From assembly GCA_902761275.1 (NCBI GenBank), contig CACWJS010000018.1, positions 1-61,762 of the forward strand: 61,762 nt of DNA, in the 5' to 3' direction. Shown here piece by piece: positions 7,446-58,269 of this stretch. The DNA is from an uncultured bacterium. GTDB lineage: Bacteria > Verrucomicrobiota > Kiritimatiellia > RFP12 > UBA1067. The notes beneath the pieces are model-generated. The model searched no databases, had not been told where the DNA came from, and was given only the letters and a program-made list of their open reading frames with translations. Both the position numbers and the translations under genes were made by a program. The first letter of the stretch is position 1, and each line of letters opens with the position of its first letter.

Positions 7446-7459
7446 AAAGGAGGTTGACC

Positions 7460-10400: not shown

Positions 10401-12130
10401 CGGTGCCGACCCGCGAGTTCACTGTCGCGTTCGACGGCAATGGCGGAACGGGGACGATGGCGGATCAGAAGTTTGCCGAGGGAGAGGAGAAGAATCTGAC
10501 GGCGAATGCATTTACGAAAGCTGGCTGTTTGTTCGTCGGCTGGAAGGATCGCAGTGGCATGGAATATGCGGACGGCGAGGCGATCGTCGCGACATCCGAC
10601 CTGACGCTTGTCGCGCAGTGGAAGCAAACCGTTGCGCCGCCCACAGCGGCGACGGGGCTCCTATACAGCGGGAGGGCGCAGAAAGGGGCGGACTGGGGCG
10701 TTGGTTATGTGATTGCCGGCAACATCGAGACGAATGCAGGCACCCATTACGCGAAGGCGACGGTTAGAGCTGGCTATGTCTGGGACGACGGCACGACGGG
10801 AACGAAGGAAATCCAATGGTCAATTGCCAAGGCGACATACGACATGAGCGGCGTCACTTTTGAAGACGGCATTTTCATGGCCGACGGAACGCCCAAGAGC
10901 CTCGCAGTTTCGGGCGAACTTCCCGCTGGTGTGCAGGTCTCCTACGAAGGCAACGGCCAGACGGATGCCGGGAGCTACACGGTCACCGCTAAGTTTACCG
11001 GCGATGAAGTCAATTACAAGCCTATTGCAGACATCATGACGGCGACGCTCATCATAACGGGGGGCGTCAATCCTGGTCCAGATGATTCCGGCTCGGGCGA
11101 TTCCGGCTCAGGCGATTCCGGTCCAGGAATCGCCCCGGCGCTCCTTTCCCCCGGCTCATTTCGCGAACCGGCCCGTCGTCGTGGGCTTGGGCCCTGCGGG
11201 TCTCTTCGCCAGGCGAAAGCCGGACAGGCAACTAAGTCGACAATCACCGTTATGCCTATTGGGGGGAAGAAGTACACGAGGAAGGCTTCCTTCATCCCTG
11301 GCGCAAATCCGACGGATGAATACGGCATAGTCTACGGCGTGCATGGGCTGCTTGGCACTTTTGACGGCTATGTGGTCGAAGCGAGCGCGGACGTCTACAA
11401 GTCTAAGGATCCAGCCGCGAAGGCGCTTGCATCTAAGATACCCGTCGCAGTGCATACGTTTGCCTTTGACACGGACAGTGGCTTCGCCGTCTTCTCCGCG
11501 TCCGTCGCCAAGACGGGGAAGACGAAGGTGCAGGGCTATCTCGGCAACGGCGCGAAGGTGTCGGTCTCGACGACAGGCGTACTCGGCGAAGATTACTTTG
11601 CCGTGCCGGTTGCCGTATCAAAGAAGGCCATGGAATTCGGCTTTGTCCTTTGGATTCCGCTCAATGGCGACAAACCGTTTGTCGCGAACATATTCAACTC
11701 GGCATGGAAGGCTGCGCAGACCGGGGGGGCCTATGCCCTTGCCGATGGCGTGCACGTCTTCGACTTCGTGGAACTGCCCACCTTCCGCAGCTATATTGCC
11801 GCAGTGGACGGTACGCCTGTAGCTCCCGTCGGCGAGAAGTTTACGGTATCGGGGTCGAAATGGGCTTTCTCAAAAACGTCCGGCAAGCTGAAGGTCGTTG
11901 ACGGCATTCTCGCAGTAATATCCAAGAGCGAGCCCGCAAACTTGTCTGGGCTCAAGCTCTCGTATGCGGCAAAGACCGGGCTCGTAAAGGGGTCGTTCAA
12001 GCTGTATTACATGGAAGGCGGGAAGATAAAGTCTGACAAGGTGACGATTACTGGCGTTGTGGCGGAAGGTGTCTTCATTGGCAGCGGAACGGTCAAGAAG
12101 CTTGGCTCCTTTGCCGTGTGGGCAGAATGA
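7460..12130 (+). CDS. large secreted surface protein with multiple Listeria-Bacteroides (InlB B-repeat / Flg_new-type) repeats
   Basis: A Shine-Dalgarno AAGGAGG (7447-7453) sits 6 nt before the ATG at 7460; the ORF-track TTG at 7454 is rejected. The signal peptide is [19 protein letters not shown]. The repeat pattern Y.V.F..NGG.G.M......Y......L..N.F...G..F.GW.......Y.......L......LYA.W recurs at least 8 times. Confidence 0.8.
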
Positions 12131-15249: not shown

Positions 15250-18200
15250 ATGAAAACAAGAAAAGCACTGTCGCTCTTCTTTTGTACGGTTGCGTTTGCC
15301 GCAAGCGCGGCAACCGTTTCCGTCGATAAGGCCAAGTTTGCGGCCGGTTCCTGGGCTCTCTCGGATGCCTCGCTCGGCGTCCCGCACGGCCGCACGGTCA
15401 GCGGCGCGACGGCATACGACGTTGACGGTTCGACCGGCTTCTATGCAGTCGCCCTCGAAGGGGGTGGCACGCTCTTCCTCGCGGCGGACGACGAAATCGG
15501 CCCCGTCCTTGCGTTTACGGCGGAGTCCAATCCAGATCTTTCCAAGGGAAGTCCGCTGCGTGATCTCCTTGAGCGTGACATCAAGGCGCGTCGCGGTGTT
15601 GTAGCGGCCGCAAAGGAACTTGATAAATCCATGCCCAATGCGGCGCAAAATGCCGTGCCTTCCACTTCTTTGCAGTCTTCGGCTTCCGCTGCAGCAAAAG
15701 CGGTCTGGGCTGCATTGACGGTTTCGGTTCCCACATCGGCTTCGACTGACCTTGATCGCGCGACTGGCGCTTCGTCCGATGCCGCGCTCTCTTACGCAGC
15801 GCCGCGGTCGGCTCTTGCCGTATCGGATGTTCGCGTTGATCCGCTCGTCCAGTCGCAGTGGTCTCAGCAGGAGGCCGGCGGCGGCTATTGCTATAACTAC
15901 TATACGCCGTTACATTATCCTTGCGGCTGCGTGGCGACCGCCGCCGCCCAGATCATGCGCTACTGGAATTGGCCGCAAGGGGAACTGGCGCACTATTCTA
16001 ATGAATGCACCGTCGACGGCGATGGCCAGTTGCTTTACACTGTTGGCCATCCCGATGATCCGAATACTGTTGAAAGTCAGCGCATTTACGACTGGGGTCA
16101 CATGAAGTTGAAGCCTGCGTCTTATGCGACTGACCAGGAGCGCGAGGCCATTGGGCGGCTCACGTCTGACATAGGCGTGGCCTTGGGCGCGAGCTACGAG
16201 TCCGACGGCACCGGCGCGATGTCTATCGATGTAAGCAAGGTGTTTCGCGCTAAGTTTGCCTATCCGAGTGGCGTAGAGTTTTGGAACGTCAACTGGGAGT
16301 CGGCGCTTCAGGACGGCGGCGGTCTCCACTCGCGTGAGACGCGTAACAAGGTGATATACGCCTGTCTTGATGCGCGGCTTCCCGTACAGCTTGCCATTGC
16401 CGATGGCAACGGATACAATGGGCACGCGGTTGTCTGCGACGGGTACGGCTTTGTTACGATTGGCGACGTTGAGACCGAGTTCGCCCACATCAACATGGGC
16501 TGGGCAGGTAGTGGCGACGTGTGGTACAACATTCCCGACATTGACTCCATCGCGGGTTCGACGGCCGGGGGTGGCGGTGTGCACTTCCAGATCATAAAAG
16601 GCGCAACGTTCAATATCGCGACTAATGCATTTGGCGGGTTGCTCACTGGGCGCATAATTGACGACGGGGAGCCCGTCGCCAACGCAGTCGTTACGGCATA
16701 TAAGGGCGCGGATGCGGTCGGCACTTGCACGACGGACGAACACGGCATATACGCCTTTATGCTTCCGGCAAATACGAGCTACGACGTTAGGGTGGTGTCT
16801 GCGGACGGCGTGAAATCTGGTGCGCTTGACCATTCTGTTTATATCGCCGAGACGTGGGAAGATGCCGACTATGTCGTGTACGACGTCAATAACGTAGGCA
16901 ATTCGTGGGGCAACGATATCGACATCGTGATTCCGCATGTAAGAATCGTTGGCGAAAATAACTATCCAAGCCTGAATTCTGCGCTTGTGGCTGCCTCGAC
17001 AATGGAAAATCCTATCGTCGAGATATTTGGCCCCACTAAGCTAAAGGCCCCGGTTACCATCACGACAAACGTCACGATCCGCACCGTTCCCGCCGCGACT
17101 CTCTCTCTCGCCGACTGCGAGGTAGTCGCCACCGACGATACGATTACCAAGGAAGGATGGGTTCTGCAAGTGGCCGATGGCGTCCGCGTGGATTTTTCGA
17201 ACATCGTGATTCGTACGGAGGCGAACGCCCCTGTCCGCATTAACGTATTCGAGACCGGCAAGGTGGCGTTTTCTGGCCGTGTCGATCTTGGGACTGTGGT
17301 AACGCATGCCGCCGACGCTTTCATCCTTGCCGGGCCGCTTGAACTGGAGGGTAATGGTCTTGCCGTTTCCTGTCCTGTTGCATCTGGCTTTGGGTTGCAG
17401 TTCGGTACGTACGAGTGCTCCGACGAAGAGGCGGGGACTTGTGTACGCTTGATCGCCAACGCACTTGACGCGACGTTGACAGGCGTAGCAAGCGGCGGAG
17501 TCCTCGTCTGGGATCGGCAGCCGATCGATCCTTCCATCGCCATTGCATACGCCACGAATGATGTTTTCGGCATCAAGTACTATAGTTCGGTCGATCTGCT
17601 TTTTAGCGACTACACTAATGGTGCAGAGGTCGTTTTTCTCAAGGACTGTCCGGTGAACATGTTCACGAACGCCGTGGTCGTTGGCAAGTCGATGACCATA
17701 CGGTCCGAAGCAGACACTCCTTTTGTCGTGACAGCAGGCGAGGCGGCCGGTTTTACGGTGCAGGGCGAAGACACCGAGCTTGTTTTCACCAACATTGTGT
17801 TCAAGCGCACCGGCACTCCCTCCACGAACTTTGCCACTGTCAAGGGCGGCGCGTCGTTAGTGCTTGCCTCCGGCGCAGCCATAGCCGACTTGCAGCTTGC
17901 TGGAACGGCCAGCGCGGTGTATGTGGACAGCAGCAGTGACATGGAGATGACGAACAAGGTTACGATGCTGAAGGGCTCTGTCATCACGAATTGCGTGGCG
18001 ACGCGGTTGGCCACAGGCAGGGCGGGCGGCGTCTATCTCACAGGCGAGAATTCTTTGTTCGACTTTGCGGGCGGCTTGATAACTGGTTGTGTGGCGGGTC
18101 ATAATACCGGTGGCGGAGCCGTGTATGCCGGGAAGGGCGCGACAGTCGCAGTCTCTGGTTCGGCGACTGCGTATGGGAACAAGTCCAAAACTTATACGCG

Positions 18201-19686
18201 CAACATCTACGTCCAGAGCTTTGAAAGCCTGATTCTCGCCGATGAGCTTACTGGTGAAGTTGGCGTCTATTGCAATGGCGGCACCGCAAACGGAAAGTCG
18301 TTTGCCACGGTTGATGCGTCGACAGCTGCCGCGCTTGCGTCCAGAGAACACTTCTACAATGACTATAGCGCATCCTTGTATGCCGAGACATCCGAAGACT
18401 TCACCACGCTTGTTTGGGCGGCAGAGCCGCCAGGCCCAAAACCAGTGCCAGAAGTCGATGCCGAAGCTCGTCTCATAGTCGGCTCCGAGACGAATACGTA
18501 CGCCACCGTGGGCGATGCATTTGAGGCCGCAGGCCTCAGCGACGCGAGAATCGAGCTTGTCACGAATGCCTCCTTGTCTGCGAGCATTACGGTCTCGTCG
18601 GCAATAGTCTTTGACGGAATGGGTTGGAAGCTTGACCGTGTCGGCGATTTCTGTCTTTCTGTTCCGAATGCGGACGCGTCTTTGACGGTGACGAACATAG
18701 TCATTGATGGCGGGAGTGGTGCAGGCAGGATATTGGATGTATATGGCGGATCGCTTGTCCTTGGGGCGGATACTGTGATTTCCTGTGTTACGGGCGCAGT
18801 CAATACTATGGTCGCCCCGATAGTGGTAAATCAGAATGGAACACTTACGATGTTGCCTGGTTCGGAGATTTCGTATTGCACGAATTTGTTTGCGCGGTGG
18901 TCTGGCGGCCCGCTTGCTGCGGGTGCTGTCGTCGCGACCGGTAATAGCTGTGTGCGGATTTATGGTGGATCGATACACCACTGCTCCGGCTCTGGTGCCG
19001 GCGGTGTGTACATCGGCAACACGGCATGCGCATACGTGCAAGGGGATGTCTCGATATGCGACAATACGTCGCTTTCCGGCGAGCCAAGCAACCTGGTTGT
19101 CCATGACAAGAGTGTTCTTGTGCTCGATGACATGCTTGCTGGCTTAATCGGCTATACTGAGGGCGTGGGCGGCGACACGAACGTTTTCGGAACCGTAGAC
19201 TCCGATTTTGTCGCATCGACCACGGCGAGCAACGTAGCTGTCAGCGCACGTTGCTTCAAGCACGACCTGACGGGGGCGAAGGGCATGGTTGCCACGAACG
19301 AGACCGAGGCGATTCTCGTTTGGAGTTCCGCAGTCGGCGATTCGACCATGTTCACCAATGTGGTGGAAGGCGTGACGAACATTTACGAGGTCGTAAGAAT
19401 TGCTGGCGATGACGAGCCAGAGGTTGTCGTGTGCGAGCCCTTTGCGTTTGTCGCGATAGAGGAAGTCACGCCTGGCACGTGGAAACTTACGCTGACTAAT
19501 GGCACGGAGTATTGCATTTACACGCTATTTGGATCGGCAGACCTGAAGAACTGGTCTGAGGCTGGCAAAAAGAATCCGCTTGCTGGCGGCGACATCTCTG
19601 GCGCAGATCATGAGTTTGTCTTCGAGGTCAACGATTCGTCCGGCACGCAATTCTGGAAAGTCGAGGGCGCCGACGGAACCAAATAG
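15250..19686 (+). CDS. giant secreted C10-family (streptopain-like) cysteine peptidase fused to a CarboxypepD_reg-like domain and long beta-helix-like repeats
   Basis: Signal peptide MKTRKALSLFFCTVAFAASA. An I69-like propeptide pattern is present (FYAVALEGGGTLFLAADDEIGPVLAF). The catalytic Cys motif is CGCVATAAAQIMRYWNWP and the His motif is GHAVVCDGYG. After that come about 900 aa of Gly/Thr/Val/Ala-rich repeats typical of parallel beta-helices. Confidence 0.8.
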   Translation: MKTRKALSLFFCTVAFAASAATVSVDKAKFAAGSWALSDASLGVPHGRTVSGATAYDVDGSTGFYAVALEGGGTLFLAADDEIGPVLAFTAESNPDLSKGSPLRDLLERDIKARRGVVAAAKELDKSMPNAAQNAVPSTSLQSSASAAAKAVWAALTVSVPTSASTDLDRATGASSDAALSYAAPRSALAVSDVRVDPLVQSQWSQQEAGGGYCYNYYTPLHYPCGCVATAAAQIMRYWNWPQGELAHYSNECTVDGDGQLLYTVGHPDDPNTVESQRIYDWGHMKLKPASYATDQEREAIGRLTSDIGVALGASYESDGTGAMSIDVSKVFRAKFAYPSGVEFWNVNWESALQDGGGLHSRETRNKVIYACLDARLPVQLAIADGNGYNGHAVVCDGYGFVTIGDVETEFAHINMGWAGSGDVWYNIPDIDSIAGSTAGGGGVHFQIIKGATFNIATNAFGGLLTGRIIDDGEPVANAVVTAYKGADAVGTCTTDEHGIYAFMLPANTSYDVRVVSADGVKSGALDHSVYIAETWEDADYVVYDVNNVGNSWGNDIDIVIPHVRIVGENNYPSLNSALVAASTMENPIVEIFGPTKLKAPVTITTNVTIRTVPAATLSLADCEVVATDDTITKEGWVLQVADGVRVDFSNIVIRTEANAPVRINVFETGKVAFSGRVDLGTVVTHAADAFILAGPLELEGNGLAVSCPVASGFGLQFGTYECSDEEAGTCVRLIANALDATLTGVASGGVLVWDRQPIDPSIAIAYATNDVFGIKYYSSVDLLFSDYTNGAEVVFLKDCPVNMFTNAVVVGKSMTIRSEADTPFVVTAGEAAGFTVQGEDTELVFTNIVFKRTGTPSTNFATVKGGASLVLASGAAIADLQLAGTASAVYVDSSSDMEMTNKVTMLKGSVITNCVATRLATGRAGGVYLTGENSLFDFAGGLITGCVAGHNTGGGAVYAGKGATVAVSGSATAYGNKSKTYTRNIYVQSFESLILADELTGEVGVYCNGGTANGKSFATVDASTAAALASREHFYNDYSASLYAETSEDFTTLVWAAEPPGPKPVPEVDAEARLIVGSETNTYATVGDAFEAAGLSDARIELVTNASLSASITVSSAIVFDGMGWKLDRVGDFCLSVPNADASLTVTNIVIDGGSGAGRILDVYGGSLVLGADTVISCVTGAVNTMVAPIVVNQNGTLTMLPGSEISYCTNLFARWSGGPLAAGAVVATGNSCVRIYGGSIHHCSGSGAGGVYIGNTACAYVQGDVSICDNTSLSGEPSNLVVHDKSVLVLDDMLAGLIGYTEGVGGDTNVFGTVDSDFVASTTASNVAVSARCFKHDLTGAKGMVATNETEAILVWSSAVGDSTMFTNVVEGVTNIYEVVRIAGDDEPEVVVCEPFAFVAIEEVTPGTWKLTLTNGTEYCIYTLFGSADLKNWSEAGKKNPLAGGDISGADHEFVFEVNDSSGTQFWKVEGADGTK

Positions 19687-20775: not shown

Positions 20776-20865
20776 GGAGAGTTGGCGGAGTGGTTGAACG
20801 CGGCGGTCTTGAAAACCGTTGAGGATGCAAGTCCTCCGGGGGTTCGAATCCCTCACTCTCCGCCA
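20776..20865 (+). tRNA. tRNA-Ser (anticodon UGA)
   Basis: Hand-folded cloverleaf. The acceptor stem is GGAGAGT/ACTCTCC. The anticodon stem is GCGGT/ACCGT with loop CTTGAAA. The long variable arm is GAGGA..TCCTC. The T-arm is GGGGG-TTCGAAT-CCCTC, followed by an encoded CCA. Confidence 0.9.
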
Positions 20866-20897: not shown

Positions 20898-22061
20898 ATG
20901 AAGAAGACCGTAATCGTAAACGCACACGTCGTTTCCCCCGGCGTCGACATCGAAAAAGCCACGATCATCGTCGAGGGCAAGAAGATAAAGCAAGTCCTCA
21001 AGGGCTCGAAGGCAGTCAAGTCCGACGCGAACACGACCGTCGTCGACGTGCGCGGTCAGTACGTGATGCCTGGCTTCATTGACGTCCATACTCACGGTGC
21101 GCTCGGCTACGACTTCTGCGACGCCGACCCCAAGGCGATCTTCGAGTTCGCGAAGGCGAAGCTCGCGGAGGGCGTGACGACCGTGCTCCCGACGACGCTC
21201 ACAGTCTCGCACGGCGAACTGATCGCCGCCGCGAAGAACGCCAAGGCCTACGCCGACGCGGGCATGCCGTATTCCAAGGTTCCCGGCATCCACCTCGAAG
21301 GCCCGTTCATCAACGTCAAGTGCTGCGGTGCTCAGAACCCGAAATTCGTCCGCAAGCCCGCAATCAAGGAAGTTAAGGAGATCTCCAAGGTCTATCCCGT
21401 GAAGCTCATTTCCTACGCGGTCGAGACCGAGGGCGGCGCGAAGTTCGCGAAGGAGTGCTTCAAGATGGGCGTCGTGCCGAGTTGCGGCCACACGGGCGCG
21501 AAGTTCAAGGATCTCGTTCCCGCCTACAAGAACGGCCTTCGCCACATGACGCACTTCTGCAACCAGATGACGCCGCTTCACCACCGCGAGATCGGTATGG
21601 TCGGTGCTGGCTTCCTCGTCGAGGACCTCAACACCGAGGTCATCTGCGACAAGATCCACCTCTGCCCCGACATGCTGAACCTCATCTTCACGCGCCGCAG
21701 TCTCGAGCACATCCAGATGATCACCGACTCGCTCCGCTGCTCGCACTGCAAGGACGGCTACGCCTTCGAGATGGGCGGGCTCAAGGTTCTTCTCAAGGGC
21801 GGCGAGGCGCGTCTCGTCGAAGGCGGCAACCTCGCTGGTTCGACGCTCTGGATGGGCATGGGTCTCAAGAACGTCCACGACGTCACCGGCATTCCGCTCA
21901 AGGACCTCGTTCGCACGACCTCGTGGAACCAGGCGATCGAGCTCGGCTGGGGCAAGACGCTCGGCAAGGTCGAGAAGGGATACATCGCCGACCTCGTCGT
22001 GATCAACCCGCGCAGCTGGAAGCCGTCGGCCGTCTTCATTGACGGCGAACAGCGCATTTGA
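20898..22061 (+). CDS. nagA: N-acetylglucosamine-6-phosphate deacetylase
   Basis: A Shine-Dalgarno AAGGAG lies 7 nt upstream. The sequence has the motifs VMPGFIDVHTHG and GIHLEGPFIN..CCGAQ, with an amidohydrolase fold pattern. Confidence 0.85.
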   Translation: MKKTVIVNAHVVSPGVDIEKATIIVEGKKIKQVLKGSKAVKSDANTTVVDVRGQYVMPGFIDVHTHGALGYDFCDADPKAIFEFAKAKLAEGVTTVLPTTLTVSHGELIAAAKNAKAYADAGMPYSKVPGIHLEGPFINVKCCGAQNPKFVRKPAIKEVKEISKVYPVKLISYAVETEGGAKFAKECFKMGVVPSCGHTGAKFKDLVPAYKNGLRHMTHFCNQMTPLHHREIGMVGAGFLVEDLNTEVICDKIHLCPDMLNLIFTRRSLEHIQMITDSLRCSHCKDGYAFEMGGLKVLLKGGEARLVEGGNLAGSTLWMGMGLKNVHDVTGIPLKDLVRTTSWNQAIELGWGKTLGKVEKGYIADLVVINPRSWKPSAVFIDGEQRI

Positions 22062-22083
22062 TACAATACGCGCCATACGATTT

Positions 22084-22177
22084 GGAGAGATGGCCGAGTG
22101 GCTGAAGGCAACGGTTTGCTAAATCGTCGTACGGGTTAATTTCCGTACCGAGGGTTCGAATCCCTCTCTCTCCGCCA
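22084..22177 (+). tRNA. tRNA-Ser (anticodon GCU)
   Basis: The acceptor stem is GGAGAGA/TCTCTCC. The anticodon stem is ACGGT/ATCGT with loop TTGCTAA. The long variable arm is CGTACGG..CCGTACC. The T-arm is GAGGG-TTCGAAT-CCCTC, followed by CCA. Confidence 0.9.
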
Positions 22178-22194
22178 TTTTCCCGTCCGTTTTT

Positions 22195-22203
22195 TGGTAT
22201 AAT
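22195..22203 (+). promoter_or_regulatory. extended -10 promoter TGGTATAAT, 8 nt upstream of the GTG at 22212
   Basis: The sequence reads gttttTGGTATAATacggaacaGTG, with no Shine-Dalgarno sequence. The conserved KS N-terminus IAIVGMSCRF starts at codon 5, so the start cannot lie further downstream. Confidence 0.5.
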
Positions 22204-22211
22204 ACGGAACA

Positions 22212-23615
22212 GTGGAATCCTCTATCGCCATAGTCGGCATGTCGTGCCGATTCGCCGAGTGTCCTACGCTGTCGGCCTTCTGGGGCGCCGTCATGTCACG
22301 CCGCTGCTGTCTTTCGCCTCTTGGCCCAGACGCCGAGATACCGCTCGGCCAGCACAACGTATTCGAACGACCCTATCCCGTGAGGATGGGCCAGCTCGGG
22401 CCACTCTTCGCGTGCGTTCCCTCGATGCAGAACTTCCCGCGCCAGGTGAACGCCGGCGAGAACCAGGATCTATACTTTGCGACGCAGCTTGCGTTCGACG
22501 CGCTTGCCGACGCCGGGCTTCGCCCGCATTCGCCAACTCCCGTAAAGGGCAGCGTACGCGTCGGCTACGCTCCGCCGTTCAACGCGTCGACGGTCAACTG
22601 GCTTCAGCATACGGCGTTCCTTGACCAGACGATGGACATAATCCGCCGCTTCTTCCGGCACGCGCCAGAGGAGTCGCTTGAAATCGTAAAGGAGAAGCTC
22701 GTAGAGTCGCTTCCCGCGCCAAACGCCTCGTCGTTTCTTCTCGGTACCGGCTATCGCTTTGCGTCGTGGATTGCGCGCGAATGTTCCTTTGCGGGCGTCG
22801 CGACGACGATGGACGCGGGGCTTCTCACCGGCGCCGCGACGTTGCAGGACGCAATAGCCGATCTTGTTTCCGGTCAGGCGGACGTCGCTCTCGCGGGTGC
22901 GCTTACGCCGCCTATTCCGCGCGCCTATCTCGAGGGGCTTTCCGGTGAGGTGCCGTTCTCGACGCGCACCGAGCTTCATCCTTTCGCGCAAGAGCAGGAC
23001 GGCACGATTCCCGGAGAGGGCGGCGCGTTCTTCGTCTTGAAGCGCCGTGCCGATGCGCTGCGCGATCACGACAGGATATACGCGCTCGTCCGCTCCGTAG
23101 CGATAGGCCACAACCCGGAAGACGATCCGTCCACCATTTTCGCCCAGGCGACCGAGGGGAGCGGCATCCCTGTCAAGACGATCGGGCTCGTCGAGGCCGA
23201 TGGCTCTGGCATAGCCGTTTCCGAGCAGCGCGAGATCGACGCCGTCCACCGGCTTTGGGGCGAGCACCATCCTGGCGGGCCGCTCGTCGCGATGGGTTCC
23301 GTGAAAGGCAATATCGGCCACACTCTCCGCGCGGCAATGGCGGCTGGCGTCGTGAAGGCCGCGCTTGCGCTCTTCCGCCGCGTCCTTCCGCCGCAGGTTC
23401 CGCAGGAGCATCCGCACGAGTCGCTCGCTAACCTCGCGTCGAGCGCATACCTTCTTGACGAGGCGCGTCCGTGGATAACGGGCGACAGCTCAAGCCCGCG
23501 CCGCGCCGTGGTGCTTGGCGCAAACTTCGACGCGACCGATCCCGTGGGCAATACCGCGAAGGGCGGGCGCGCTGCGGCGATAGTCCTTGAAGAGGAACCG
23601 GAGGACCGGCTGTGA
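22212..23615 (+). CDS. beta-ketoacyl synthase (PKS-type KS) homologue with substituted active-site residues (KS0)
   Basis: It has a PKS KS-like N-terminus (IAIVGMSCRF....FW), then VATTMDAGLLTGAATLQDAIADLVSGQADVALAGAL where DTACSSS is expected. EADGSGIAV stands where EAHGTGT is expected. KGNIGHTLRAAMAAG is retained. Confidence 0.75.
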   Translation: MESSIAIVGMSCRFAECPTLSAFWGAVMSRRCCLSPLGPDAEIPLGQHNVFERPYPVRMGQLGPLFACVPSMQNFPRQVNAGENQDLYFATQLAFDALADAGLRPHSPTPVKGSVRVGYAPPFNASTVNWLQHTAFLDQTMDIIRRFFRHAPEESLEIVKEKLVESLPAPNASSFLLGTGYRFASWIARECSFAGVATTMDAGLLTGAATLQDAIADLVSGQADVALAGALTPPIPRAYLEGLSGEVPFSTRTELHPFAQEQDGTIPGEGGAFFVLKRRADALRDHDRIYALVRSVAIGHNPEDDPSTIFAQATEGSGIPVKTIGLVEADGSGIAVSEQREIDAVHRLWGEHHPGGPLVAMGSVKGNIGHTLRAAMAAGVVKAALALFRRVLPPQVPQEHPHESLANLASSAYLLDEARPWITGDSSSPRRAVVLGANFDATDPVGNTAKGGRAAAIVLEEEPEDRL

Positions 23616-26600
23616 CGGTTGAATTCGGAGCTACGGGAAGAAGCGAACTCGTCCTCGTGTCTGCGGCGGACGATGAGGCGCTTGTCGGCGAGATCTCCCG
23701 CCTCGTGGCGTTTCTCGACCGCCTGCCCGACGTGCCTCTTGCCGACGTCGCCTACACCTGTTCGCTCGCGAGCGGTCCTGCAGTCCTCGCGCTCGTAGTC
23801 TCGAGCGTCAGCGAACTCAGGGCGCGGCTTTTCTCCGCGCGTTCCCGCATCGCTGCAGGCGCGGCGAAGATACGCGACAAGAGCGGCACTTACTACTTCC
23901 GAGAGCATCTCGTCGGCGAAGGCGCGGGCAAGCTCGCGTTCGTCTACCCCGGCGTTATGAGCTACTACCCCGACATGCTCCGCGACATAGCGATACTCCA
24001 TTCGGAGTGCCGCTCGGCGTTCGACGAGTTGGAGGAGGCGCTTTCCGACGACCCCGAATTCACGCCGTCGAGCTTCATCTTTCCGCCTGCTCCCTACTAT
24101 CGTCATGACGCAGACATCTTCAGCTCCGGCGCATACGCGCAGGCGTTTGTCGCGTCGTTCACCGGCTGCATTGCGATGTCGCGGCTCCTCGACCGCCTCG
24201 GCATCGTCCCCGACGGAGTCGTCGGCTGTGTTGGCGGAGATCTTGCCGCCGTGATGCGCTCGGGTGCGGCGGGCGTTGGCAATCCGCGCCCAGTGAGGGT
24301 ACGCGCGATTCGTGAGATATACAAGATCGTCGACAAGGCGGTAGACCATTCGGGGCTTCCAAAGACGTCGATGATCTCCGTCCTTCTCAAGCACGAGGGC
24401 GAGGCGGACGAGGTCGTGAAGGAATTTCCGACGGACAAGGTTGCGCTCGTGCTCGACTTCTCGCCGCGCCAGCGTACGTACGCCGTAACGCCCGACTACG
24501 AGGAGACCGCGCTAAAGGCGTTTTCCGACGCCGGGATCCGCACGATGAAGCTTGCGCTTGAACGCCCCTTCAACACCTCGAAGTGTAAGCCGATAGTCTC
24601 GGGCGTAAAGAAGTTCGCGGGCGACTGGATGAAGCACGAATCGGTGTGCGACGTCTATTCGTGTGCACAGGCCGACCGTCTCCCGCGGAAGGCGCGGCCT
24701 TCGCGCAACGACACGGCCGAGCGCTGGGCGCAGCCGGTGAGGTTCCGCGAGACGATTCTCAAGATGCATGCCGACGGCTACCGCGTGTTCCTCGAAGTCG
24801 GCCCCCGCGGGCTTATGACTGCGGCTGTCTCAGAGACGTTGAAAGGTTCTGACTTCGCGGCGATTGCGCTTAACTCGATACACCGCCGCGGCATCCTGCA
24901 GGCGTGCCATGCGATTGGCCAGCTTGCCGCGTATGGCGTGAAGCTCGATTTCTCCAAGGCGTTTGAGCGCCGCCGTGTGCGGAAGCTCGACTTCGATTCC
25001 GCCATATCGCTTGAAGTGCGGCGCGACGCCGAGATGCGACTTTCGAGCGCGTTCCCTCGGCTCACGCTGCTCGGCGACGAGACGTTTCTACAGGGCGCGA
25101 ACTTCCTTTCCGAGCCGACGGGTCGCGGCGCAAAGGCCGCGCAGAGGGCGGCGGCAGTCGCGGCAAAGGCCCGCCGCCAGCGCCAGTTCGACTTCGGCGC
25201 GGCGAACCCGCTCGTTTCCGACGCCGACATCCTTGCGCAGAGCCCTGGCGTTTCAATCGAGATCTCGAAGACTTTCCGCACTGCCGATGCCCCGTTCCTT
25301 GCCGATTTCGCGCTTGGCGCGAGCCAGCTTTCCTATTCCGACCCGAACCTCAAGGGACTCGTCATGCTGTCGATTCCCGTCGCCGCCGAGATAATGGCCG
25401 AGGTAGCGCGGATGCTCGTTCCGAACAGGACGCTCGTCTCGATAGAGAACCTTGGCTGCAGGCGCATGGTCGCTTTCACCGGCGGCGAACTCAAGCTTTT
25501 CGTCAAGGCCGAGCGCGTCGCCTCGGGTGACTCGAAGCTCGCGGCAGTCAATGTGCAGATACGGGACGACTCCCCGAACTCCGCCTACACGTGGCCCGTC
25601 ATGGACGGCGTGTTTGTCATGGCAGAGCAGCATGCACCCATGGTGCCGATGTCGCCGCCTCCGATGTTCAAGCCCCGCACAGTCCACTGGTCGGATCGCG
25701 ACATATATCCAGCGCGTCTCTGTTACGGGCGGCGGCTTAGGGGCATCCGCTTCGTCGAGTCGTGGAGCGAGTCGGGGCTGGACTACGAGGTCGAGGTTTC
25801 CCCGTTCTCCGAGGCAGTCGTGTTCACGCGCTTCCCGCTGTGGATCGTAAACCCGCTGCTCCTCGGCGCCATCACGAGCGGCTTTGCGCTCTGGCGCAGT
25901 CATGAAAAATTCACCGGCGCGTTCTCGTTCCCGTTCCGCCTGAGGAAGCTTGAGTTCTTCGGTGCGCAGCCGCACGAAGGCTCGCGGCTCAAGTGCTACC
26001 TGCGGCTCACGGGCGTGACGCCGAAATCGCACGTCTGCGACATCACTGCCACGGACGGAAACGGCGTCGCCCTAATGTCTATCTCCGGTTGGGAGGAGCT
26101 CACCGAGCGCGTTCCAGCCGAATACCGCGAGCTCGTCCTTCAGCCCGCAAACGCATTTCTCACGCGGCGCGTCTCTACCGACATGCTCGGCGACCCTGCG
26201 ACGGAGGTCGCCAGCGCGTTCATCACCGACATTCCCTACCAGATCTTCGAGCGCAACGAGGAGATTTGGCTAAAGACGCTTTCGCATGTCATCCTCGGCG
26301 CGCAGGAGCGCGACGAGTTCCGCAACATGCCGGGTTCCACGTCGCGCCGCGCCGAGTGGCTGTTTGGACGCGTTGCGGCGAAGGAAGCCGTGCGCCGCTA
26401 TTTGATGGACTTCCACCAGGCGAGGTGGAGCGATGCGGACATACAGATATGGCGCGACGACTCCGGCAAGCCGCACGCGCTCGGTGCATGGGGCGATCAT
26501 CTCTCCTCGAAGATCGACATAGCGATCGCGCACACCGCGCAGTTCGTCATCGCGCTTGCGGCGGCGAACGCCCGTGTCGGCGTCGACGTCGAGTCCGTGA

Positions 26601-26938
26601 CGCGCGACCTTTCCGAGGAGTTCACGGCGGGCGTGTTCGTCCCCGAGGAGCTTGAGCTTGCCGCAAACGCGGCGAATGCGGCGCAGGCGATAATCCGCTT
26701 CTGGTGCGCGAAGGAGGCCGTTTCCAAGGCGCTTGGCACAGGCATCCGCTACAGCCCGCGCGAGATGCGCGTCGCCGACTACCAGCCGGACACCGGCAGG
26801 ATTATCGTGCGTCTCGAGGGCGCATGGCTCGACGCCTTCAAGAAGTTCCGCGGCCGCGACATAGAGGTTACGTCTCGCGTCATGCGCGAACATGCGCTTG
26901 CCTTTTGCTTCATGCCGATGACGTTGTTCGATGAATAG
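23612..26938 (+). CDS. multidomain protein: acyltransferase-like (AT0) plus PKS dehydratase-like (DH0) plus C-terminal 4'-phosphopantetheinyl transferase
   Basis: The GTG start overlaps the KS0 stop (GTGA). The AT-like region has FVYPGVMSYYPDM, GVVGCVGGDLAA in place of GHSxGE, and FLEVGPRGL. A hot-dog-like region has APFLADFALGAS where LxxHxxxG is expected. The PPTase motifs GVDVESV and FWCAKEAVSKALGTG are intact. No ACP-like DSL motif was seen. Confidence 0.7.
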   Translation: MTVEFGATGRSELVLVSAADDEALVGEISRLVAFLDRLPDVPLADVAYTCSLASGPAVLALVVSSVSELRARLFSARSRIAAGAAKIRDKSGTYYFREHLVGEGAGKLAFVYPGVMSYYPDMLRDIAILHSECRSAFDELEEALSDDPEFTPSSFIFPPAPYYRHDADIFSSGAYAQAFVASFTGCIAMSRLLDRLGIVPDGVVGCVGGDLAAVMRSGAAGVGNPRPVRVRAIREIYKIVDKAVDHSGLPKTSMISVLLKHEGEADEVVKEFPTDKVALVLDFSPRQRTYAVTPDYEETALKAFSDAGIRTMKLALERPFNTSKCKPIVSGVKKFAGDWMKHESVCDVYSCAQADRLPRKARPSRNDTAERWAQPVRFRETILKMHADGYRVFLEVGPRGLMTAAVSETLKGSDFAAIALNSIHRRGILQACHAIGQLAAYGVKLDFSKAFERRRVRKLDFDSAISLEVRRDAEMRLSSAFPRLTLLGDETFLQGANFLSEPTGRGAKAAQRAAAVAAKARRQRQFDFGAANPLVSDADILAQSPGVSIEISKTFRTADAPFLADFALGASQLSYSDPNLKGLVMLSIPVAAEIMAEVARMLVPNRTLVSIENLGCRRMVAFTGGELKLFVKAERVASGDSKLAAVNVQIRDDSPNSAYTWPVMDGVFVMAEQHAPMVPMSPPPMFKPRTVHWSDRDIYPARLCYGRRLRGIRFVESWSESGLDYEVEVSPFSEAVVFTRFPLWIVNPLLLGAITSGFALWRSHEKFTGAFSFPFRLRKLEFFGAQPHEGSRLKCYLRLTGVTPKSHVCDITATDGNGVALMSISGWEELTERVPAEYRELVLQPANAFLTRRVSTDMLGDPATEVASAFITDIPYQIFERNEEIWLKTLSHVILGAQERDEFRNMPGSTSRRAEWLFGRVAAKEAVRRYLMDFHQARWSDADIQIWRDDSGKPHALGAWGDHLSSKIDIAIAHTAQFVIALAAANARVGVDVESVTRDLSEEFTAGVFVPEELELAANAANAAQAIIRFWCAKEAVSKALGTGIRYSPREMRVADYQPDTGRIIVRLEGAWLDAFKKFRGRDIEVTSRVMREHALAFCFMPMTLFDE

Positions 26939-27701
26939 CAGGGATCCATTTGGAGAGCTCAAGCCGCATCGCGCGCTACCGTCTGGGCTGAAGCAGAGGT
27001 TTCCCGACCGCGTGCTTGTCATGACGACGGATCGCTGTTTCGGTGCTTGCCCGCACTGCACGCGAAAGTTCATTCTCGGAAAGTCTTCTGTCGTCGACTC
27101 CCCCGAACGCCTCGATGCCTGCGTCGACTACGTGAAGCGCCATCCGAAAGTGCGCGACGTGCTTCTTTCCGGCGGTGACGTCCTTACGCTGTCCGATGCG
27201 AAGGTGGCGAAGTTCGTCGAGCCATTTGCGAAGCTCGACCAGATAGAAGTCATTCGAATATGCACGCGTGCGCCGGTGTCGAAGCCTGCGCGGATTACTG
27301 CGCATCTCGCGCGGCTCTTGCGCCGCGTTGGGCGCGGCAAGGTTTGGGCGAATGTCCACATCAATACGGCAGATGAGGCGCGGCTTGCGTGCGACGCGGC
27401 GGCGCGGCTCATTGACTGCGGCATTCCTGTCTCGTCGCAGACGGTGCTTCTTCGCGGGCTAAACGACACGCCGCGCAAGATGCTGTCTCTTCTCCGCGCG
27501 CTTTCCGCCGCGAGGATCCGACCCTACTACGTCTTTCAGTGCGATCCCGTCGAGGGACTTCAGGAGCGCTTCGGCGTTCCGCTCGCCCGCGCGAAGAAGA
27601 TCGAGGCGTACTGCGCCGAGCGCATTGGCGGCCTCGCGCTCCCTCGCTTCGTCGCCGACCTTCCCGCCGCCAAGCGCAAAACCCCCCTCGACCTCCTCTA
27701 A
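26931..27701 (+). CDS. KamA-family (lysine 2,3-aminomutase-like) radical SAM protein, short form
   Basis: FPDRVLVMTTDRCFGACPHCTRK carries the CxxxCxxC motif. Other matches are VRDVLLSGGDVLTL, SQTVLLRGLNDT and IRPYYVFQCDPVEGL. At 256 aa, the Cys triad starts at residue 36. It overlaps the upstream gene by 8 nt. Confidence 0.75.
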   Translation: MNSRDPFGELKPHRALPSGLKQRFPDRVLVMTTDRCFGACPHCTRKFILGKSSVVDSPERLDACVDYVKRHPKVRDVLLSGGDVLTLSDAKVAKFVEPFAKLDQIEVIRICTRAPVSKPARITAHLARLLRRVGRGKVWANVHINTADEARLACDAAARLIDCGIPVSSQTVLLRGLNDTPRKMLSLLRALSAARIRPYYVFQCDPVEGLQERFGVPLARAKKIEAYCAERIGGLALPRFVADLPAAKRKTPLDLL

Positions 27702-29943: not shown

Positions 29944-30374
29944 TTGCGCCTTGAATTGCTCCGCAGTTTGCGCGTCTTCGGCGGGGTGTTTCCGCTCTTT
30001 GTTTTGAATCGCCGCGCCGCCCGATGGCTCGCGGGGCTCTCGTTCGGCTCCAGGCTCGCGACGGCTTTCGCACATCAGACAATGCTCCGAGTTTAGCCTG
30101 CCGTGCCTCGGCGTCTATCTCTGGTTGCGTACGCAAGTCCCTCTCACGCCTGCGACCTTCCGCCTGCCTCACCCGCGACCATCGGCTCGTCGCGGCGACA
30201 GCCTTGCGGCAAAAATACCTGTCGCCGAAACGCGCCACACCGCGGACGCGCTTTAACACTATCTGACCCTAATTGACGATAGCTGTCACTAATCCATACT
30301 TGAATGCTTCGCTGCCACTTGGCGGCAGTTTCGCTGCGATCCAAAATTTTCACCGTTCACCCCCGAGCGGTTTT

Positions 30375-30383
30375 TGGTATAAT
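30375..30383 (+). promoter_or_regulatory. extended -10 promoter TGGTATAAT inside the 888-bp non-coding gap
   Basis: cggttttTGGTATAATgtttgcg has the same T-tract plus TGGTATAAT context as at 22195. It lies about 450 nt upstream of the next ATG. Confidence 0.4.
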
Positions 30384-30831: not shown

Positions 30832-33800
30832 ATGAAAAGGTTGATATTGCTGATGGTAATGGGTCTTGTGGTTGCTTTGCCTCTTATTGCTGGCACGGAA
30901 ACGGTCGATGGAATTGAATGGACATATACCGTATTAAATGGTGAAGTTATGCTTGGAGGAAGCTACGCTGCAGCCACAGCCGTTCCAACATCTACGGCTG
31001 GGGAGTTGATGATACCATCCTTTCTCGGTGGTTATCCTGTGACGAGCATCAGGGCTCGTGCGTTCGATGGTTGCAGCGGGTTGACGAGTGTGGTAATACC
31101 AGATAGCGTGGCGAGCATCGGAGATTCTGCGTTTTCCCGGTGCAGCGGGTTGACGAACATGACTATGGGTGTCGGCGTGACGAGCATCGGGAAGTATGCG
31201 TTCCGTGATTGTAGGAGTCTAACGAGCGTGACGATCCCCGCCAGTGTGACGAACATCGGTGAGTGCGCGTTCCAAAGGTGTGGCAGGATTGAAGCCGTAT
31301 ACATAACCGACATAGACAAATGGTGCGGGATAACTTTTGGCGATATCGACGCAAACCCCCTTTACTACGCATACAATCTCTACCTAAATGGGTCAAAGAT
31401 AGCAGGAGATTTAACGATCCCTGACGGCGTGACGGCTATTTGCCCTGCCTTGTTCTATGGTTGCAGCGATCTGACGAGCGTGACAATTCCAAATAGCGTG
31501 ACGGGCATAGGAGAGGATGCGTTCTGCAACTGCAGCGGGCTGACGAGCATAACGATTCCCGGAAGTGTAACGAACATTGCGGTGAGTGCGTTCGCCAACT
31601 GCACCAACCTTACAAGCGTTTCAATTGGTGATGGCGCATTGAGCATAGGGGATTCTGCGTTTTCTGGCTGCAGCGGGCTGACGAGCGTGACGATCCCCGG
31701 CAGCGTGACGAACATCGGAGAGAACGCGTTCTATGGTTGTAGCGGAATGTTGTTATTTATCGTAGATGATGCCAATCTTAAATATGCATCCGTGAATGGG
31801 TTGTTGCTATCTAAAGACAGAAAGAATCTAATTCAAGGAGTAAATGGTAATGTAACAATCCCTGATGGTGTGACAAGCATAGGGCGCGATGCGTTCTATA
31901 ATTGCAGGGGTCTTACATGTGTTCAGATCCCTGCCAGTGTGACGAACATCGGTGATAAGGCGTTCAACGGTTGTAGAGGGCTAACTAGCGTAACTATTCC
32001 GAACAGCGTGACGAGCATTGGGAACCGCGCGTTCAACGGTTGCAGAGGGCTGACCAATGTGTCGATTCCGCAATGTGTTTGCACTAATCGGCTGCGGACT
32101 GTTTTTGAATCGTCCTATCAGTCAATTACGAATGTCGTAATCTTAGATGGTGTTACAAGCATCGGGGATGGGGCGTTCTCCGGCTGCAGCAATCTGAAGA
32201 GCATAATAATTCCAGATAGTGTGTCAAGCATAAGGCAAAGCGCATTCTCCGATTGCAGAGCGTTGACGAGCGCATCGATCCCGCAATGTGTTTGCACTAA
32301 TCGTCTGTCGTCCGTTTTTCCATCCTATCAGTCAATTACGAATATTGTTGTTTCGGATGGCGTTACGAGCATGGGAGATTCGGTGTTTGATGGTTGTAGT
32401 AGCTTGGGGAGTGTGATAATCCCCGGCTCCGTGACGGCCATGCAAGGTATCAGTACTAATCGGTTGTCATCTATATTTCCTTCGTTTTATCAGTTGATTA
32501 CAAGTGTTGTCATTCCAGATGGTGTGACGGATATCGTTGATGGGGCATTTGGTGGCTGCAGTCGCTTGGCGAATGTGACAATACCGGACAGTGTGACGTG
32601 CATCGGGAGCAGTGCGTTCGCCAATTGCACAAGCCTTACGAGCGTGACAATACCGGACAGCGTGACGAGTATCGGTGATGGGGCGTTTAAGGGGTGTCGA
32701 GGGCTTGTCGATAAAGATGGGTTTATTGTCGTTAAGAATGTTCTGTATGGATATTTTGGTGAGGCGCAAAGTGTGACCATCCCCAACAAAGTGACGGATA
32801 TTAGTGACGAAGCATTTTACGGCTGCAGCGGCCTGACGAGCGTGACGATACCTAACAGCGTGACGAGCATAGGGGATGGTGCATTCGAGTACTGCAGCGG
32901 CCTGACGAGCGTGATGATACCTAACAGCGTGACTACAATCGGGTCTTCTGCGTTCTACCGATGCGGCGGGCTGACGAGCGTGACGATCCCAGACAGCGTG
33001 ACGAGCATAGGGGATGGTGCATTCGGGTACTGCAGCGGCCTGACGAGCGTAACTATCCCCAATAGCGTGTTAAACGTCGGGTATTCTGCGTTCTATGAGT
33101 GTGAAAACTTGACGAGCATGACAATCCCGCAATGTATCTGTGAAAACCATGGTAGTGTTCACAACTTTTTTGACCCGATATCGCAGATTACGAATATTGT
33201 TGTTGCAGATGGCGTAACGAGCATAGGACCATATTTATTCGGTTACTGTCCGGGGCTGACAAGTGTGACGATCCCAGGTAGCGTTACAAATATTGATGCC
33301 TATGCATTTGAGGGTTGCAGCTCGCTTGCAAATGTGCACATCTCGCATTGTGCCTGCACCATTCCGTTGTCGGGAATTTGCCCTTCATCTATCTGTGATA
33401 TGATTACGAGCGTAGATATTTTGGATGGAGTTACGAATATTATTGTAGGAATGTTTCGCCGCTGTGGCGGGTTGACAAGCGTGTCGATCCCTGCCAGTGT
33501 GACGAGCATAGAGGGAACGGCATTTTTTAGGTGTACAAACTTGACAAGCGTGGTGTTTGCGGGAAATGCGCCAGCAGTTGCCAGAAATTCTTTTTCTGGC
33601 TTGCAGGGATGCGTCGCTTCAGTGTCGCCAAAGTCTACGGGGTGGGGCGTCAATGTCGGCGAGAAGTGGAATGGACTAACGTTGCAGTATTGGCCGGAGG
33701 TGTTGACTGCAGCGGCGAGTGATGCAGAGGTTAGCGAAATAATGTTGACATTTACTGATGCGTCCATTGTGGGTGCAGTGACGAATGTGGCTGAATACGA

Positions 33801-34200
33801 GGCATTCAGAGCTTGGGTCGACGACAAGAACCTATGTCAACCGTCAGTAGTCGCGTCGCCATATGTGGCGGCGGCGTATTTGCTGGGCGCGGAGCGGTTG
33901 TTTGAGAACGAGCCGACGGTCGAGATTGGAGAGTTGTCGATTGGCGAGGGCGAGATTGCTGGCACTACGGCGATGACTGTCGCGGTGACAGTAAAAGACG
34001 GCGAGAGTGTAGTCACGGTTGATGCCGATAAGGTCAAGGCGATGTTCGAGGCGACAAACGATCTTGGCGACTGGACTGGCGCAGCGAAACTGATGCCAAT
34101 GGTGACAACCTCTGGCACCGACGCAAGCGGCAAGATGACTTTTGTTGTCACTCCGGGCGACGGAACGGCGAGCCGCGCGTTTTTTAGAATAAGACGATAG
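30832..34200 (+). CDS. secreted BspA-type leucine-rich-repeat (LRR_5-like) surface protein
   Basis: Signal peptide MKRLILLMVMGLVVALPLIAG. There are more than 25 units of about 23 aa of the type IP.SVTSIGD.AF..CSGLTSVTIP. G+C is visibly lower than in the flanking genes. Confidence 0.85.
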   Translation: MKRLILLMVMGLVVALPLIAGTETVDGIEWTYTVLNGEVMLGGSYAAATAVPTSTAGELMIPSFLGGYPVTSIRARAFDGCSGLTSVVIPDSVASIGDSAFSRCSGLTNMTMGVGVTSIGKYAFRDCRSLTSVTIPASVTNIGECAFQRCGRIEAVYITDIDKWCGITFGDIDANPLYYAYNLYLNGSKIAGDLTIPDGVTAICPALFYGCSDLTSVTIPNSVTGIGEDAFCNCSGLTSITIPGSVTNIAVSAFANCTNLTSVSIGDGALSIGDSAFSGCSGLTSVTIPGSVTNIGENAFYGCSGMLLFIVDDANLKYASVNGLLLSKDRKNLIQGVNGNVTIPDGVTSIGRDAFYNCRGLTCVQIPASVTNIGDKAFNGCRGLTSVTIPNSVTSIGNRAFNGCRGLTNVSIPQCVCTNRLRTVFESSYQSITNVVILDGVTSIGDGAFSGCSNLKSIIIPDSVSSIRQSAFSDCRALTSASIPQCVCTNRLSSVFPSYQSITNIVVSDGVTSMGDSVFDGCSSLGSVIIPGSVTAMQGISTNRLSSIFPSFYQLITSVVIPDGVTDIVDGAFGGCSRLANVTIPDSVTCIGSSAFANCTSLTSVTIPDSVTSIGDGAFKGCRGLVDKDGFIVVKNVLYGYFGEAQSVTIPNKVTDISDEAFYGCSGLTSVTIPNSVTSIGDGAFEYCSGLTSVMIPNSVTTIGSSAFYRCGGLTSVTIPDSVTSIGDGAFGYCSGLTSVTIPNSVLNVGYSAFYECENLTSMTIPQCICENHGSVHNFFDPISQITNIVVADGVTSIGPYLFGYCPGLTSVTIPGSVTNIDAYAFEGCSSLANVHISHCACTIPLSGICPSSICDMITSVDILDGVTNIIVGMFRRCGGLTSVSIPASVTSIEGTAFFRCTNLTSVVFAGNAPAVARNSFSGLQGCVASVSPKSTGWGVNVGEKWNGLTLQYWPEVLTAAASDAEVSEIMLTFTDASIVGAVTNVAEYEAFRAWVDDKNLCQPSVVASPYVAAAYLLGAERLFENEPTVEIGELSIGEGEIAGTTAMTVAVTVKDGESVVTVDADKVKAMFEATNDLGDWTGAAKLMPMVTTSGTDASGKMTFVVTPGDGTASRAFFRIRR

Positions 34201-58246: not shown

Positions 58247-58269
58247 ATTATACCAAAAAGTGGTATAAT
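58247..58269. promoter_or_regulatory. back-to-back divergent extended -10 promoters forming a perfect palindrome
   Basis: ATTATACCA-aaaag-TGGTATAAT. The arms are exact reverse complements. The flanking starts are at 58239 (-) and 58279 (+). Confidence 0.5.

Follow-up and report, generated by a model that had tools for sequence, protein, structure and literature searches.

An orphan ketosynthase, acyltransferase and dehydratase-like gene pair with degenerate active sites and a conserved phosphopantetheinyl transferase domain in Kiritimatiellae

Introduction

It is well established that polyketide synthases (PKSs) can contain non-catalytic domains retained for structural or partner roles. The chain-length factor (CLF) pairs with an active ketosynthase (KS) and often carries Gln at the position of the catalytic Cys, while the enediyne synthase PksE has the order KS, acyltransferase (AT), acyl carrier protein (ACP), ketoreductase (KR), dehydratase (DH) and 4'-phosphopantetheinyl transferase (PPTase). 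A PPTase is likewise incorporated in pfaC of Pseudoalteromonas sp. DS-12 (PMC3098273), and a fused pfaDA accompanied by a pfaBC homologue with a PPTase domain, whose product is uncharacterised, has been termed a "secondary lipid synthase" (PMC13291983). The latter paper likens this arrangement to a cluster of Renibacterium salmoninarum, which is classified as Type M (Shulse & Allen 2011, PMC3098273). Non-catalytic KS, AT and DH domains, integrated PPTases and the active family itself (noted and uncharacterised) are already known, but the literature that we searched describes no PPTase or PKS of the present kind in Kiritimatiellae, and gives no account of an orphan unit in which KS, AT and DH are all dead, purifying selection persists and the PPTase alone is preserved across a bacterial class. 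Here, we analyze two overlapping genes of this kind at positions 22212 to 26938 of contig CACWJS010000018.1 (assembly GCA_902761275.1), from an uncultured bacterium of the Kiritimatiellia. The contig was analyzed over its whole length of 61,762 nucleotides, hereafter the window.

On balance, we favor reading the pair as an orphaned, catalytically dead KS/AT/DH scaffold that has been kept for its PPTase and that would descend from the pfaBC-like PPTase subunit of secondary lipid synthases resembling polyunsaturated fatty acid (PUFA) synthases. A sequence-only reading of the same DNA had recognized PKS-like domains with substituted catalytic residues fused to an intact PPTase and could not place them in any described pathway; the homology searches reported below now place them as a degenerate offshoot of the PUFA-synthase-like family.

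Results and Discussion

Domain architecture

Gene 1 (467 aa) and gene 2 (1108 aa) occupy the following positions, and the evidence for each domain is given in parentheses.

22212..23615, plus strand: gene 1, a ketosynthase-like pseudoenzyme (KS0) of 467 aa (Pfam, NCBIfam, residue alignments, conservation, and the ratio of nonsynonymous to synonymous substitution rates, dN/dS)
23612..26938, plus strand: gene 2, KS-AT linker plus AT-like, DH-like and PPTase domains, 1108 aa (Pfam, NCBIfam, PDB alignments, and AlphaFold2 [AF2] with Foldseek)
23648..23830, plus strand: KS-AT linker, residues 13 to 73 of gene 2 (PF22621, PF22336, high predicted local distance difference test [pLDDT] scores)
23912..24976, plus strand: AT-like pseudo-domain, about residues 101 to 455 (Pfam match below cutoff, PDB and family alignments)
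25229..26101, plus strand: DH-like pseudo-domain of the PKS double-hotdog type, about residues 540 to 830 (family profile A2 against DH structures, family columns)
26267..26935, plus strand: PPTase of two ACPS-like halves, about residues 886 to 1108 (PF01648, TIGR00556, profile A3)

Gene 1 matched both the N-terminal (PF00109, E = 2e-21) and C-terminal (PF02801, E = 4e-18) ketoacyl-synt families of Pfam. Matches along gene 2 covered the linker (13 to 73), Acyl_transf_1 (177 to 416), PS-DH (702 to 826) and ACPS (PF01648, 988 to 1098, E = 3e-18). The AT match lies below its gathering cutoff (28.0 bits against 32.7), as does that to the RhiE-like linker PF22336, while the CurL-like linker PF22621 is barely above it (27.1 against 27). 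The top NCBIfam match of KS0 was PfaA, which also ranked second for gene 2 after a generic type I PKS model, with no match of either protein near a family cutoff. The AF2 model of gene 2 has pLDDT values of ~85 to 95 over the linker and AT and ~60 to 88 over the DH, and a Foldseek search with this model aligned ~870 columns to KS-AT-DH structures of PKSs such as CalA3, PsoA and MAS. Judging from these matches, the linker of gene 2 would complete a KS-linker-AT didomain with gene 1.

Loss of catalytic residues in three domains and retention in the PPTase

The KS motifs of gene 1 read TMDAGLL (199 to 205), EADGSG (328 to 333) and KGNIGHT (365 to 371). The catalytic Cys had been assigned to Gly203; alignments to solved PKS ketosynthases and to active relatives all place it one residue further, at Leu204 (22821 to 22823), within D201-A-G-L204. 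The replacement of the first catalytic His by Asp330 (23199 to 23201) and the retention of the second, His370 (23319 to 23321), agree with what the sequence-only reading had proposed. In the AT-like domain, the nucleophile motif GHSxGE has become G205-C-V-G-G-D210, again as first read, with Val207 (24230 to 24232) in place of Ser. The GQGSQ loop reads GVMSY, and family alignment places Asn321 (24572 to 24574) at the second catalytic His.

The DH-like domain required a broader alignment. The Pfam PS-DH match at 702 to 826 looked at odds with the motif first read at residue 563, and a profile of the degenerate clade alone gave no PDB match for the DH. Adding active relatives (profile A2) fixed both catalytic positions: this profile matched the DH structures of PksJ, CurJ, CurK and GphF with both catalytic motifs aligned, the PksJ alignment being limited to the C-terminal half of the domain. 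By the CurJ structure and the family alignment, the catalytic His is Phe566 (25307 to 25309), which bears out the proposed His-to-Phe change, and the catalytic Asp, which had not been addressed, is Gly752 (25865 to 25867). The alignments therefore confirm the substitutions, and save for the shift in KS numbering, the catalytic Cys, His and Ser are not merely offset.

The PPTase presents the opposite picture. Residues D992, E994, E1035, K1039 and H974 are all present, so that its motifs are intact as first proposed, and the D/E/E/K set is invariant in Kiritimatiellae loci within the motifs GxDxE and W(C/S)xKEAxxK; over all loci compared, the PPTase motifs are unchanged or almost so. Positions 4 to 98 of profile A3 match AcpS, and positions 95 to 215 match both AcpS and the PPT domain of fungal fatty acid synthase, these two being the top PDB matches of the domain; it is also matched by the NCBIfam model TIGR00556.

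Substitution of catalytic residues does not by itself exclude chemistry, and it had been suggested that the KS-, AT- or DH-like domains might still catalyze reactions through non-canonical residues. Several features would be compatible with this, as purifying selection acts on all domains, and the second KS His (in GNIGH) and the motifs MDAG, GGD and RPFNT are conserved, as is Asp330 within the Kiritimatiellae clade. The positions that such chemistry would need are nevertheless variable: among Kiritimatiellae loci, the Cys site is L, I, M, N, A, T or V, the AT Ser site is V or A, and the DH Asp site is G, A or E. At the DH His site, every member of this clade has Phe, a residue that cannot serve as a base. 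When wider degenerate relatives are included, the replacements differ again (A, S or a kept Cys at the KS site; V, A, G or S at the AT nucleophile; F, S, Y, C, E or R at the DH His), and no ACP substrate is encoded nearby. Since the replacement residues are not conserved, they point to true pseudo-domains rather than alternative chemistry, and we consider non-canonical catalysis very improbable.

Purifying selection and translational coupling

An absence of canonical catalytic residues in three domains, complete apart from the second KS His, might also be expected of decaying pseudogenes or a mis-assembly. This explanation, to which we attach almost no weight, is refuted by the evidence on selection and conservation. 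Estimates of dN/dS (Nei-Gojobori, 12 pairs) lie overall between 0.04 and 0.32 in every domain and are lowest in KS0 (0.05 to 0.19) and the PPTase (0.05 to 0.14), with values of 0.07 to 0.25 in the AT and 0.06 to 0.28 in the DH. More than 600 homologues were scored, and nearly all of the 120 listed are ~1100 aa long; intact full-length reading frames recur in hundreds of homologues. No frameshifts or internal stops were found in the Kiritimatiellae copies that were translated (19 of the KS and 18 of the second gene). Decay is also at odds with the AF2 model, in which confidence is high over the linker and AT and moderate over the DH. The proposal that these long reading frames are conserved, for which a dN/dS test of purifying selection had been recommended, is therefore upheld.

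The signal that couples the two genes is conserved as well.

23600..23615, plus strand: translational coupling signal, with GGAGGA at 23600 to 23605, the GTG start of gene 2 at 23612 to 23614 and the TGA stop of gene 1 at 23613 to 23615

The GTGA overlap at 23612 had been recognized from the sequence, and its position stands. Overlap of stop and start was counted in 15 of 18 related loci. All 17 Kiritimatiellae loci with both genes have a GTGA or ATGA overlap behind GGAGG(A/T) or GGGGGA. The same overlap with a Shine-Dalgarno-type box occurs in four of the more distant loci compared here (L025, L026, L028 and L034), and a further one (L030) has the ATGA overlap only.

Active relatives and family origin

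An exhaustive HMMER search of 1.84 billion representatives returned 778 clusters (50% identity) at E <= 1e-30. Proteins in the best 150 clusters are mostly 1100 to 1900 aa long and are organized either as KS-AT-(ACP)-DH-PPT or as a KS split from AT-(ACP)-DH-PPT. These relatives carry intact DAACAS and GHSxGE motifs, the DH His/Asp/Gln residues (H...D...Q) and PUFA-type LGIDSI ACP motifs. Across its full length, the pair aligns to active relatives at E = 1e-137 to 1e-81 and 26 to 33% identity. Six representatives (P0159, P0168, P0182, P0215, P0258 and P0268) display the reverse pattern, with intact AT and DH residues and substitutions among the PPTase D/E/E/K residues.

Five active loci could be inspected in context. 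Three of them (L024, L029 and L030) have an upstream pfaA- or pfaDA-like gene encoding 2579 to 2781 aa with KS, AT and KR domains, preceded in two of the three by an N-terminal enoylreductase (ER) domain; the other two (L028 and L031) lie on short contigs that cut off the upstream gene. Downstream, all five encode a small ACP of 91 to 106 aa (L024, 15674 to 15958; L028, 7499 to 7792; L029, 14873 to 15148; L030, 13926 to 14216; L031, 6553 to 6873) whose attachment motif is G(F/L)ES(L/V/I)D or DFESV in place of the common GxDS, and which has no Pfam match or a weak one. Genes for some of phosphodiesterase, hydrolase, short-chain dehydrogenase/reductase (SDR), sulfotransferase and methyltransferase are near most active loci. 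This arrangement agrees with the published one of a fused pfaDA and a PPTase-bearing pfaBC (PMC13291983; PMC3098273). The flanks of L024, L029, L030 and L031 share a conserved type I phosphodiesterase (PF01663), an alpha/beta hydrolase and an SDR, together with a varying set of sulfotransferases, CMAS-type methyltransferases, a sulfatase or a glycosyltransferase. This gene content hints that the active clusters might make an uncharacterised sulfated or methylated lipid.

Absence of a carrier protein and megasynthase from the locus

A six-frame motif scan of the 61.8-kb window and tblastn with three ACPs (E. coli AcpP and two small ACPs of active relatives) revealed no ACP-like sequence there, nor did the pair have a PP-binding Pfam match. 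The stretch between AT and DH (465 to 533) is low-confidence helix or coil without a DSL-type motif. The lack of a carrier protein at or near the pair, first noted from the sequence, is thus borne out in the window, and the same tblastn search of loci L001 to L031 returned nothing besides the known ACPs of the active loci L024 and L028. Similarly, no pfaDA-like gene was found in the flanks of 23 Kiritimatiellae loci and 7 more distant degenerate loci, examined up to 8 to 10 kb on each side where the contig allowed. These flanks hold housekeeping genes that differ between lineages.

It is possible to suppose that the pair is still the subunit of a secondary lipid synthase, acting in trans with a pfaDA-like megasynthase and ACP encoded elsewhere. 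KS0 would then resemble a chain-length factor, AT0 and DH0 would be structural, and the PPTase would activate the ACPs of that synthase. Of the five active contexts, three do place the homologue next to a pfaDA-like or pfaA-like gene; Cys-less KS partners (CLFs) are normal in PUFA synthases, and KS0 is strongly constrained. The third-best PDB match of KS0 is chain 6riw, deposited as "ORF10", which we take to be the KS-CLF didomain of Moritella PfaC. However, the ACP is directly adjacent in all five active loci, likewise the pfaDA-like gene where it is identifiable, whereas the degenerate loci searched have neither and their neighbors are housekeeping genes of changing identity. The locus offers KS0 no active KS as a partner, and since AT and DH are dead too, such a synthase would lack what this subunit usually contributes. 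We therefore regard continued service in trans as unlikely.

The degenerate clade

When representatives of 1000 aa or more are compared, the AT and DH substitutions are confined to the 12 nearest clusters, which have 31 to 63% identity to the window protein; the PPTase D/E/E/K residues are kept in all 12. States of the KS partner at the Cys, first His and second His range from C/H/H (P0134 and P0125) through A/H/H (P0126), S/H/H (P0123 and P0137) and S/G/H (P0142) to x/D/H in the clade of the window. Residual KS-type function may therefore persist in parts of the degenerate clade. In all eight degenerate lineages whose surroundings were read, the two genes stand alone among housekeeping genes, and the DNA available around them shows neither a pfaDA-like gene nor an ACP gene. 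The PPTase is the best-conserved domain of the degenerate clade (55% identity), while in active relatives the AT (44%) takes that place. Dividing degenerate-to-active identity by active-to-active identity gives 0.93 for the PPTase, 0.68 for the AT and 0.72 for the DH.

In two degenerate clusters, whose PPTase proteins are only 45% identical, panB, the gene for ketopantoate hydroxymethyltransferase of the pantothenate/CoA pathway, lies 9 to 11 nt upstream of KS0 (L025, 1970 to 2791; L034, 5085 to 5867). This arrangement points to a possible functional link to the supply of 4'-phosphopantetheine. It also bears on a further explanation, in which the dead KS, AT and DH would have acquired a new non-catalytic role. 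As a module that senses or sequesters acyl-ACP, ACP or coenzyme A (CoA), they could gate or target the PPTase; the making of holo-ACP might in this way be tied, for example, to lipid status or to how much pantothenate/CoA is supplied. Constraint on KS0 matches that on the PPTase even though KS0 is encoded separately and could be dispensed with, and such strong constraint hints at a specific function beyond scaffolding. The pair has also been kept down to 31% identity while catalytic residues were lost differently in each lineage, its strict translational coupling is conserved, and the panB linkage occurs in two deep branches. Yet this linkage is seen in just two of the eight degenerate contexts, and the conservation could equally reflect a structural dependence of the PPTase on the scaffold. 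We consider a newly gained function of this kind rather doubtful.

Proposed origin and function

We return to the reading favored above, in which a dead scaffold is kept for its PPTase. The ancestral system would have comprised a KS and an AT-(ACP)-DH-PPTase protein beside a large pfaDA-like gene (ER-KS-AT-ACP-KR-DH), with a small discrete ACP just downstream. In the Kiritimatiellae lineage, the subunit would have been orphaned, the pfaDA-like partner and the ACP now being absent from the locus. Biosynthetic chemistry would then have been lost piecemeal, as assorted non-functional residues replaced the catalytic residues of KS, AT and DH. The PPTase alone has kept its Mg2+- and CoA-binding and catalytic residues, and the unit would have been retained because this domain became useful in its own right. 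We expect KS0 and the linker-AT0-DH0-PPTase protein to assemble ~1:1 into a KS-AT-DH-like body that would serve only structurally, in folding, dimerization or carrier-protein docking. The PPTase, by its motifs, is predicted to load a carrier protein from another locus, plausibly the ACP of fatty acid synthesis, with 4'-phosphopantetheine taken from CoA. It may plausibly be a general holo-carrier-protein synthase for carriers encoded elsewhere.

Several observations weigh against this account. A purely structural role is hard to reconcile with a separately encoded KS0 under constraint as strong as that on the PPTase, and the KS partners of P0134 and P0125 are still Cys/His/His. The AF2 model is poor for the N-terminal half of the PPTase (pLDDT <50 at residues 925 to 1003), and the PPTase activity is inferred from motifs only. 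In addition, the genome may encode, away from this locus, a separate AcpS, a dedicated ACP or a synthase of the pfaDA-like type.

A bolder form of the argument can be offered only tentatively. In a class of Planctomycetes-Verrucomicrobia-Chlamydiae (PVC) bacteria, namely, Kiritimatiellae and relatives, the housekeeping holo-carrier-protein synthase might be a PPTase mounted on a triple pseudoenzyme (dead KS, AT and DH) from a lost PUFA-like synthase, with the scaffold now serving to bind ACP or acyl-ACP or to regulate the enzyme. A platform of this sort could tie the making of holo-ACP to the supply of CoA/pantothenate, at which the recurrence of panB beside the pair hints, and if this holds it would represent a new mode of PPTase targeting or control.

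Promoter and genomic surroundings

A promoter-like box precedes gene 1.

22192..22203, plus strand: promoter-like extended -10 box TTTTGGTATAAT; its end is 8 nt from the GTG start, which lacks a Shine-Dalgarno sequence

Four copies of this 12-mer, one of them with a single mismatch, occur in the window against 0.04 expected, the others being at 5438 to 5449, 30372 to 30383 and 58247 to 58258 (minus strand). A TGnTAtAAT-like box at the same spacing from the start codon is present in most related loci, distant ones included. The KS0 mRNA is probably leaderless or near-leaderless with a GTG or ATG start, to judge from this spacing. Directly upstream of the box lies the second of two tRNA-Ser genes that flank nagA (20776 to 20865 and 22084 to 22177, with UGA and GCU anticodons), and this gene has its own promoter-like site, TTGACG-17-TACAAT, at 22039 to 22067.

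Upstream neighbors of the pair are uvrA, a C10 peptidase gene, recA, tRNA-Ser, nagA and tRNA-Ser. Downstream are a short gene of the KamA family of radical S-adenosylmethionine (SAM) proteins and a parC/gyrA-like gene, and clpX, mnmE and type II secretion system genes are found elsewhere in the window. The neighbors being housekeeping genes, we rejected a biosynthetic gene cluster as the context of the pair.

26931..27701, plus strand: KamA-family radical SAM gene, 256 aa, with CxxxCxxC at residues 36 to 43 (NCBIfam KamA, AblA and EpmB, core only)

The KamA-like gene begins within gene 2, with an overlap of 8 nt, and its lysine-2,3-aminomutase/EpmB-like product lacks the terminal parts of the family models at both ends. 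This gene appears to be co-transcribed with the pair here. It was rejected as a constant partner, having been found only in loci of at least 75% identity.

Elsewhere in the window, one reading frame (38886 to 41222) joins the membrane domain of a Na+/H+ exchanger to a C-terminal EIIA-2 domain of the phosphotransferase system, and a separate EIIA-2 protein is encoded near the pair in one related locus (L012). Very large putative surface proteins are encoded at 7454 to 12130, 15250 to 19686 and 30832 to 34200; the types represented are a protein with Listeria-Bacteroides repeats (1558 aa), a C10 (streptopain-like) peptidase (1478 aa) and a BspA-type leucine-rich repeat protein (1122 aa). The reading frame of the last lies in a stretch of lower GC content (~0.51 to 0.53 against ~0.60).

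Significance and comparison with known systems

The pair is a sequence-documented case in which an entire multidomain biosynthetic module has turned into a pseudoenzyme under strong selection, with intermediate states of decay in related lineages. The related Kiritimatiellae loci come from rumen and gut metagenome-assembled genomes. Should the cell rely mainly or solely on this PPTase to activate its carrier proteins, an essential enzyme of abundant gut and rumen bacteria would have a new architecture. It would also offer a natural system in which to learn what non-catalytic KS/AT/DH bodies contribute to docking, stability or regulation. Where genome-mining tools flag such loci as PKS or PUFA clusters, the product prediction would be wrong.

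The closest likeness is to the PUFA-synthase-like secondary lipid synthases. Homology extends over the whole length, the order linker-AT-DH-PPTase is the same, and the KS is either fused or encoded by an upstream overlapping gene. Unlike the window pair, these active relatives keep DAACAS, GHSxGE and HxxxG...D...Q, often with an internal LGIDSI ACP, and the pair is without the adjacent pfaDA-like gene, small ACP or tailoring genes. The label Type M for the active relatives rests on descriptions in the cited papers, not on direct sequence comparison. Like PksE, an iterative PKS, the pair is PUFA-synthase related and has an integrated C-terminal PPTase after the DH. Its architecture sets it apart, as PksE is a single active polypeptide, whereas the pair is split, has no detected ACP or KR and has lost its catalytic residues. 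Membership in the enediyne PksE group was accordingly not supported, given the lack of ACP and KR and of any PksE-labelled structure among the PDB matches listed.

The PPTase itself resembles Sfp-type (group II) PPTases and the PPT domains of megasynthases in having two ACPS-like halves and the conserved GxDxE and WxxKEAxxK residues. It differs from Sfp-type and integrated PPTases in being fused behind a dead AT and DH, with no carrier domain in the protein or operon. KS0 finds its nearest parallel in the chain-length factor (KS-beta) and in other KS0 and AT0 domains, which likewise conserve the fold without the nucleophilic Cys. However, no active KS accompanies it at the locus, and its Cys position is variable and never Gln. 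What distinguishes the pair from CLF, KS0 and AT0 precedents as a group is that KS, AT and DH are all dead together and that the unit they form is orphaned.

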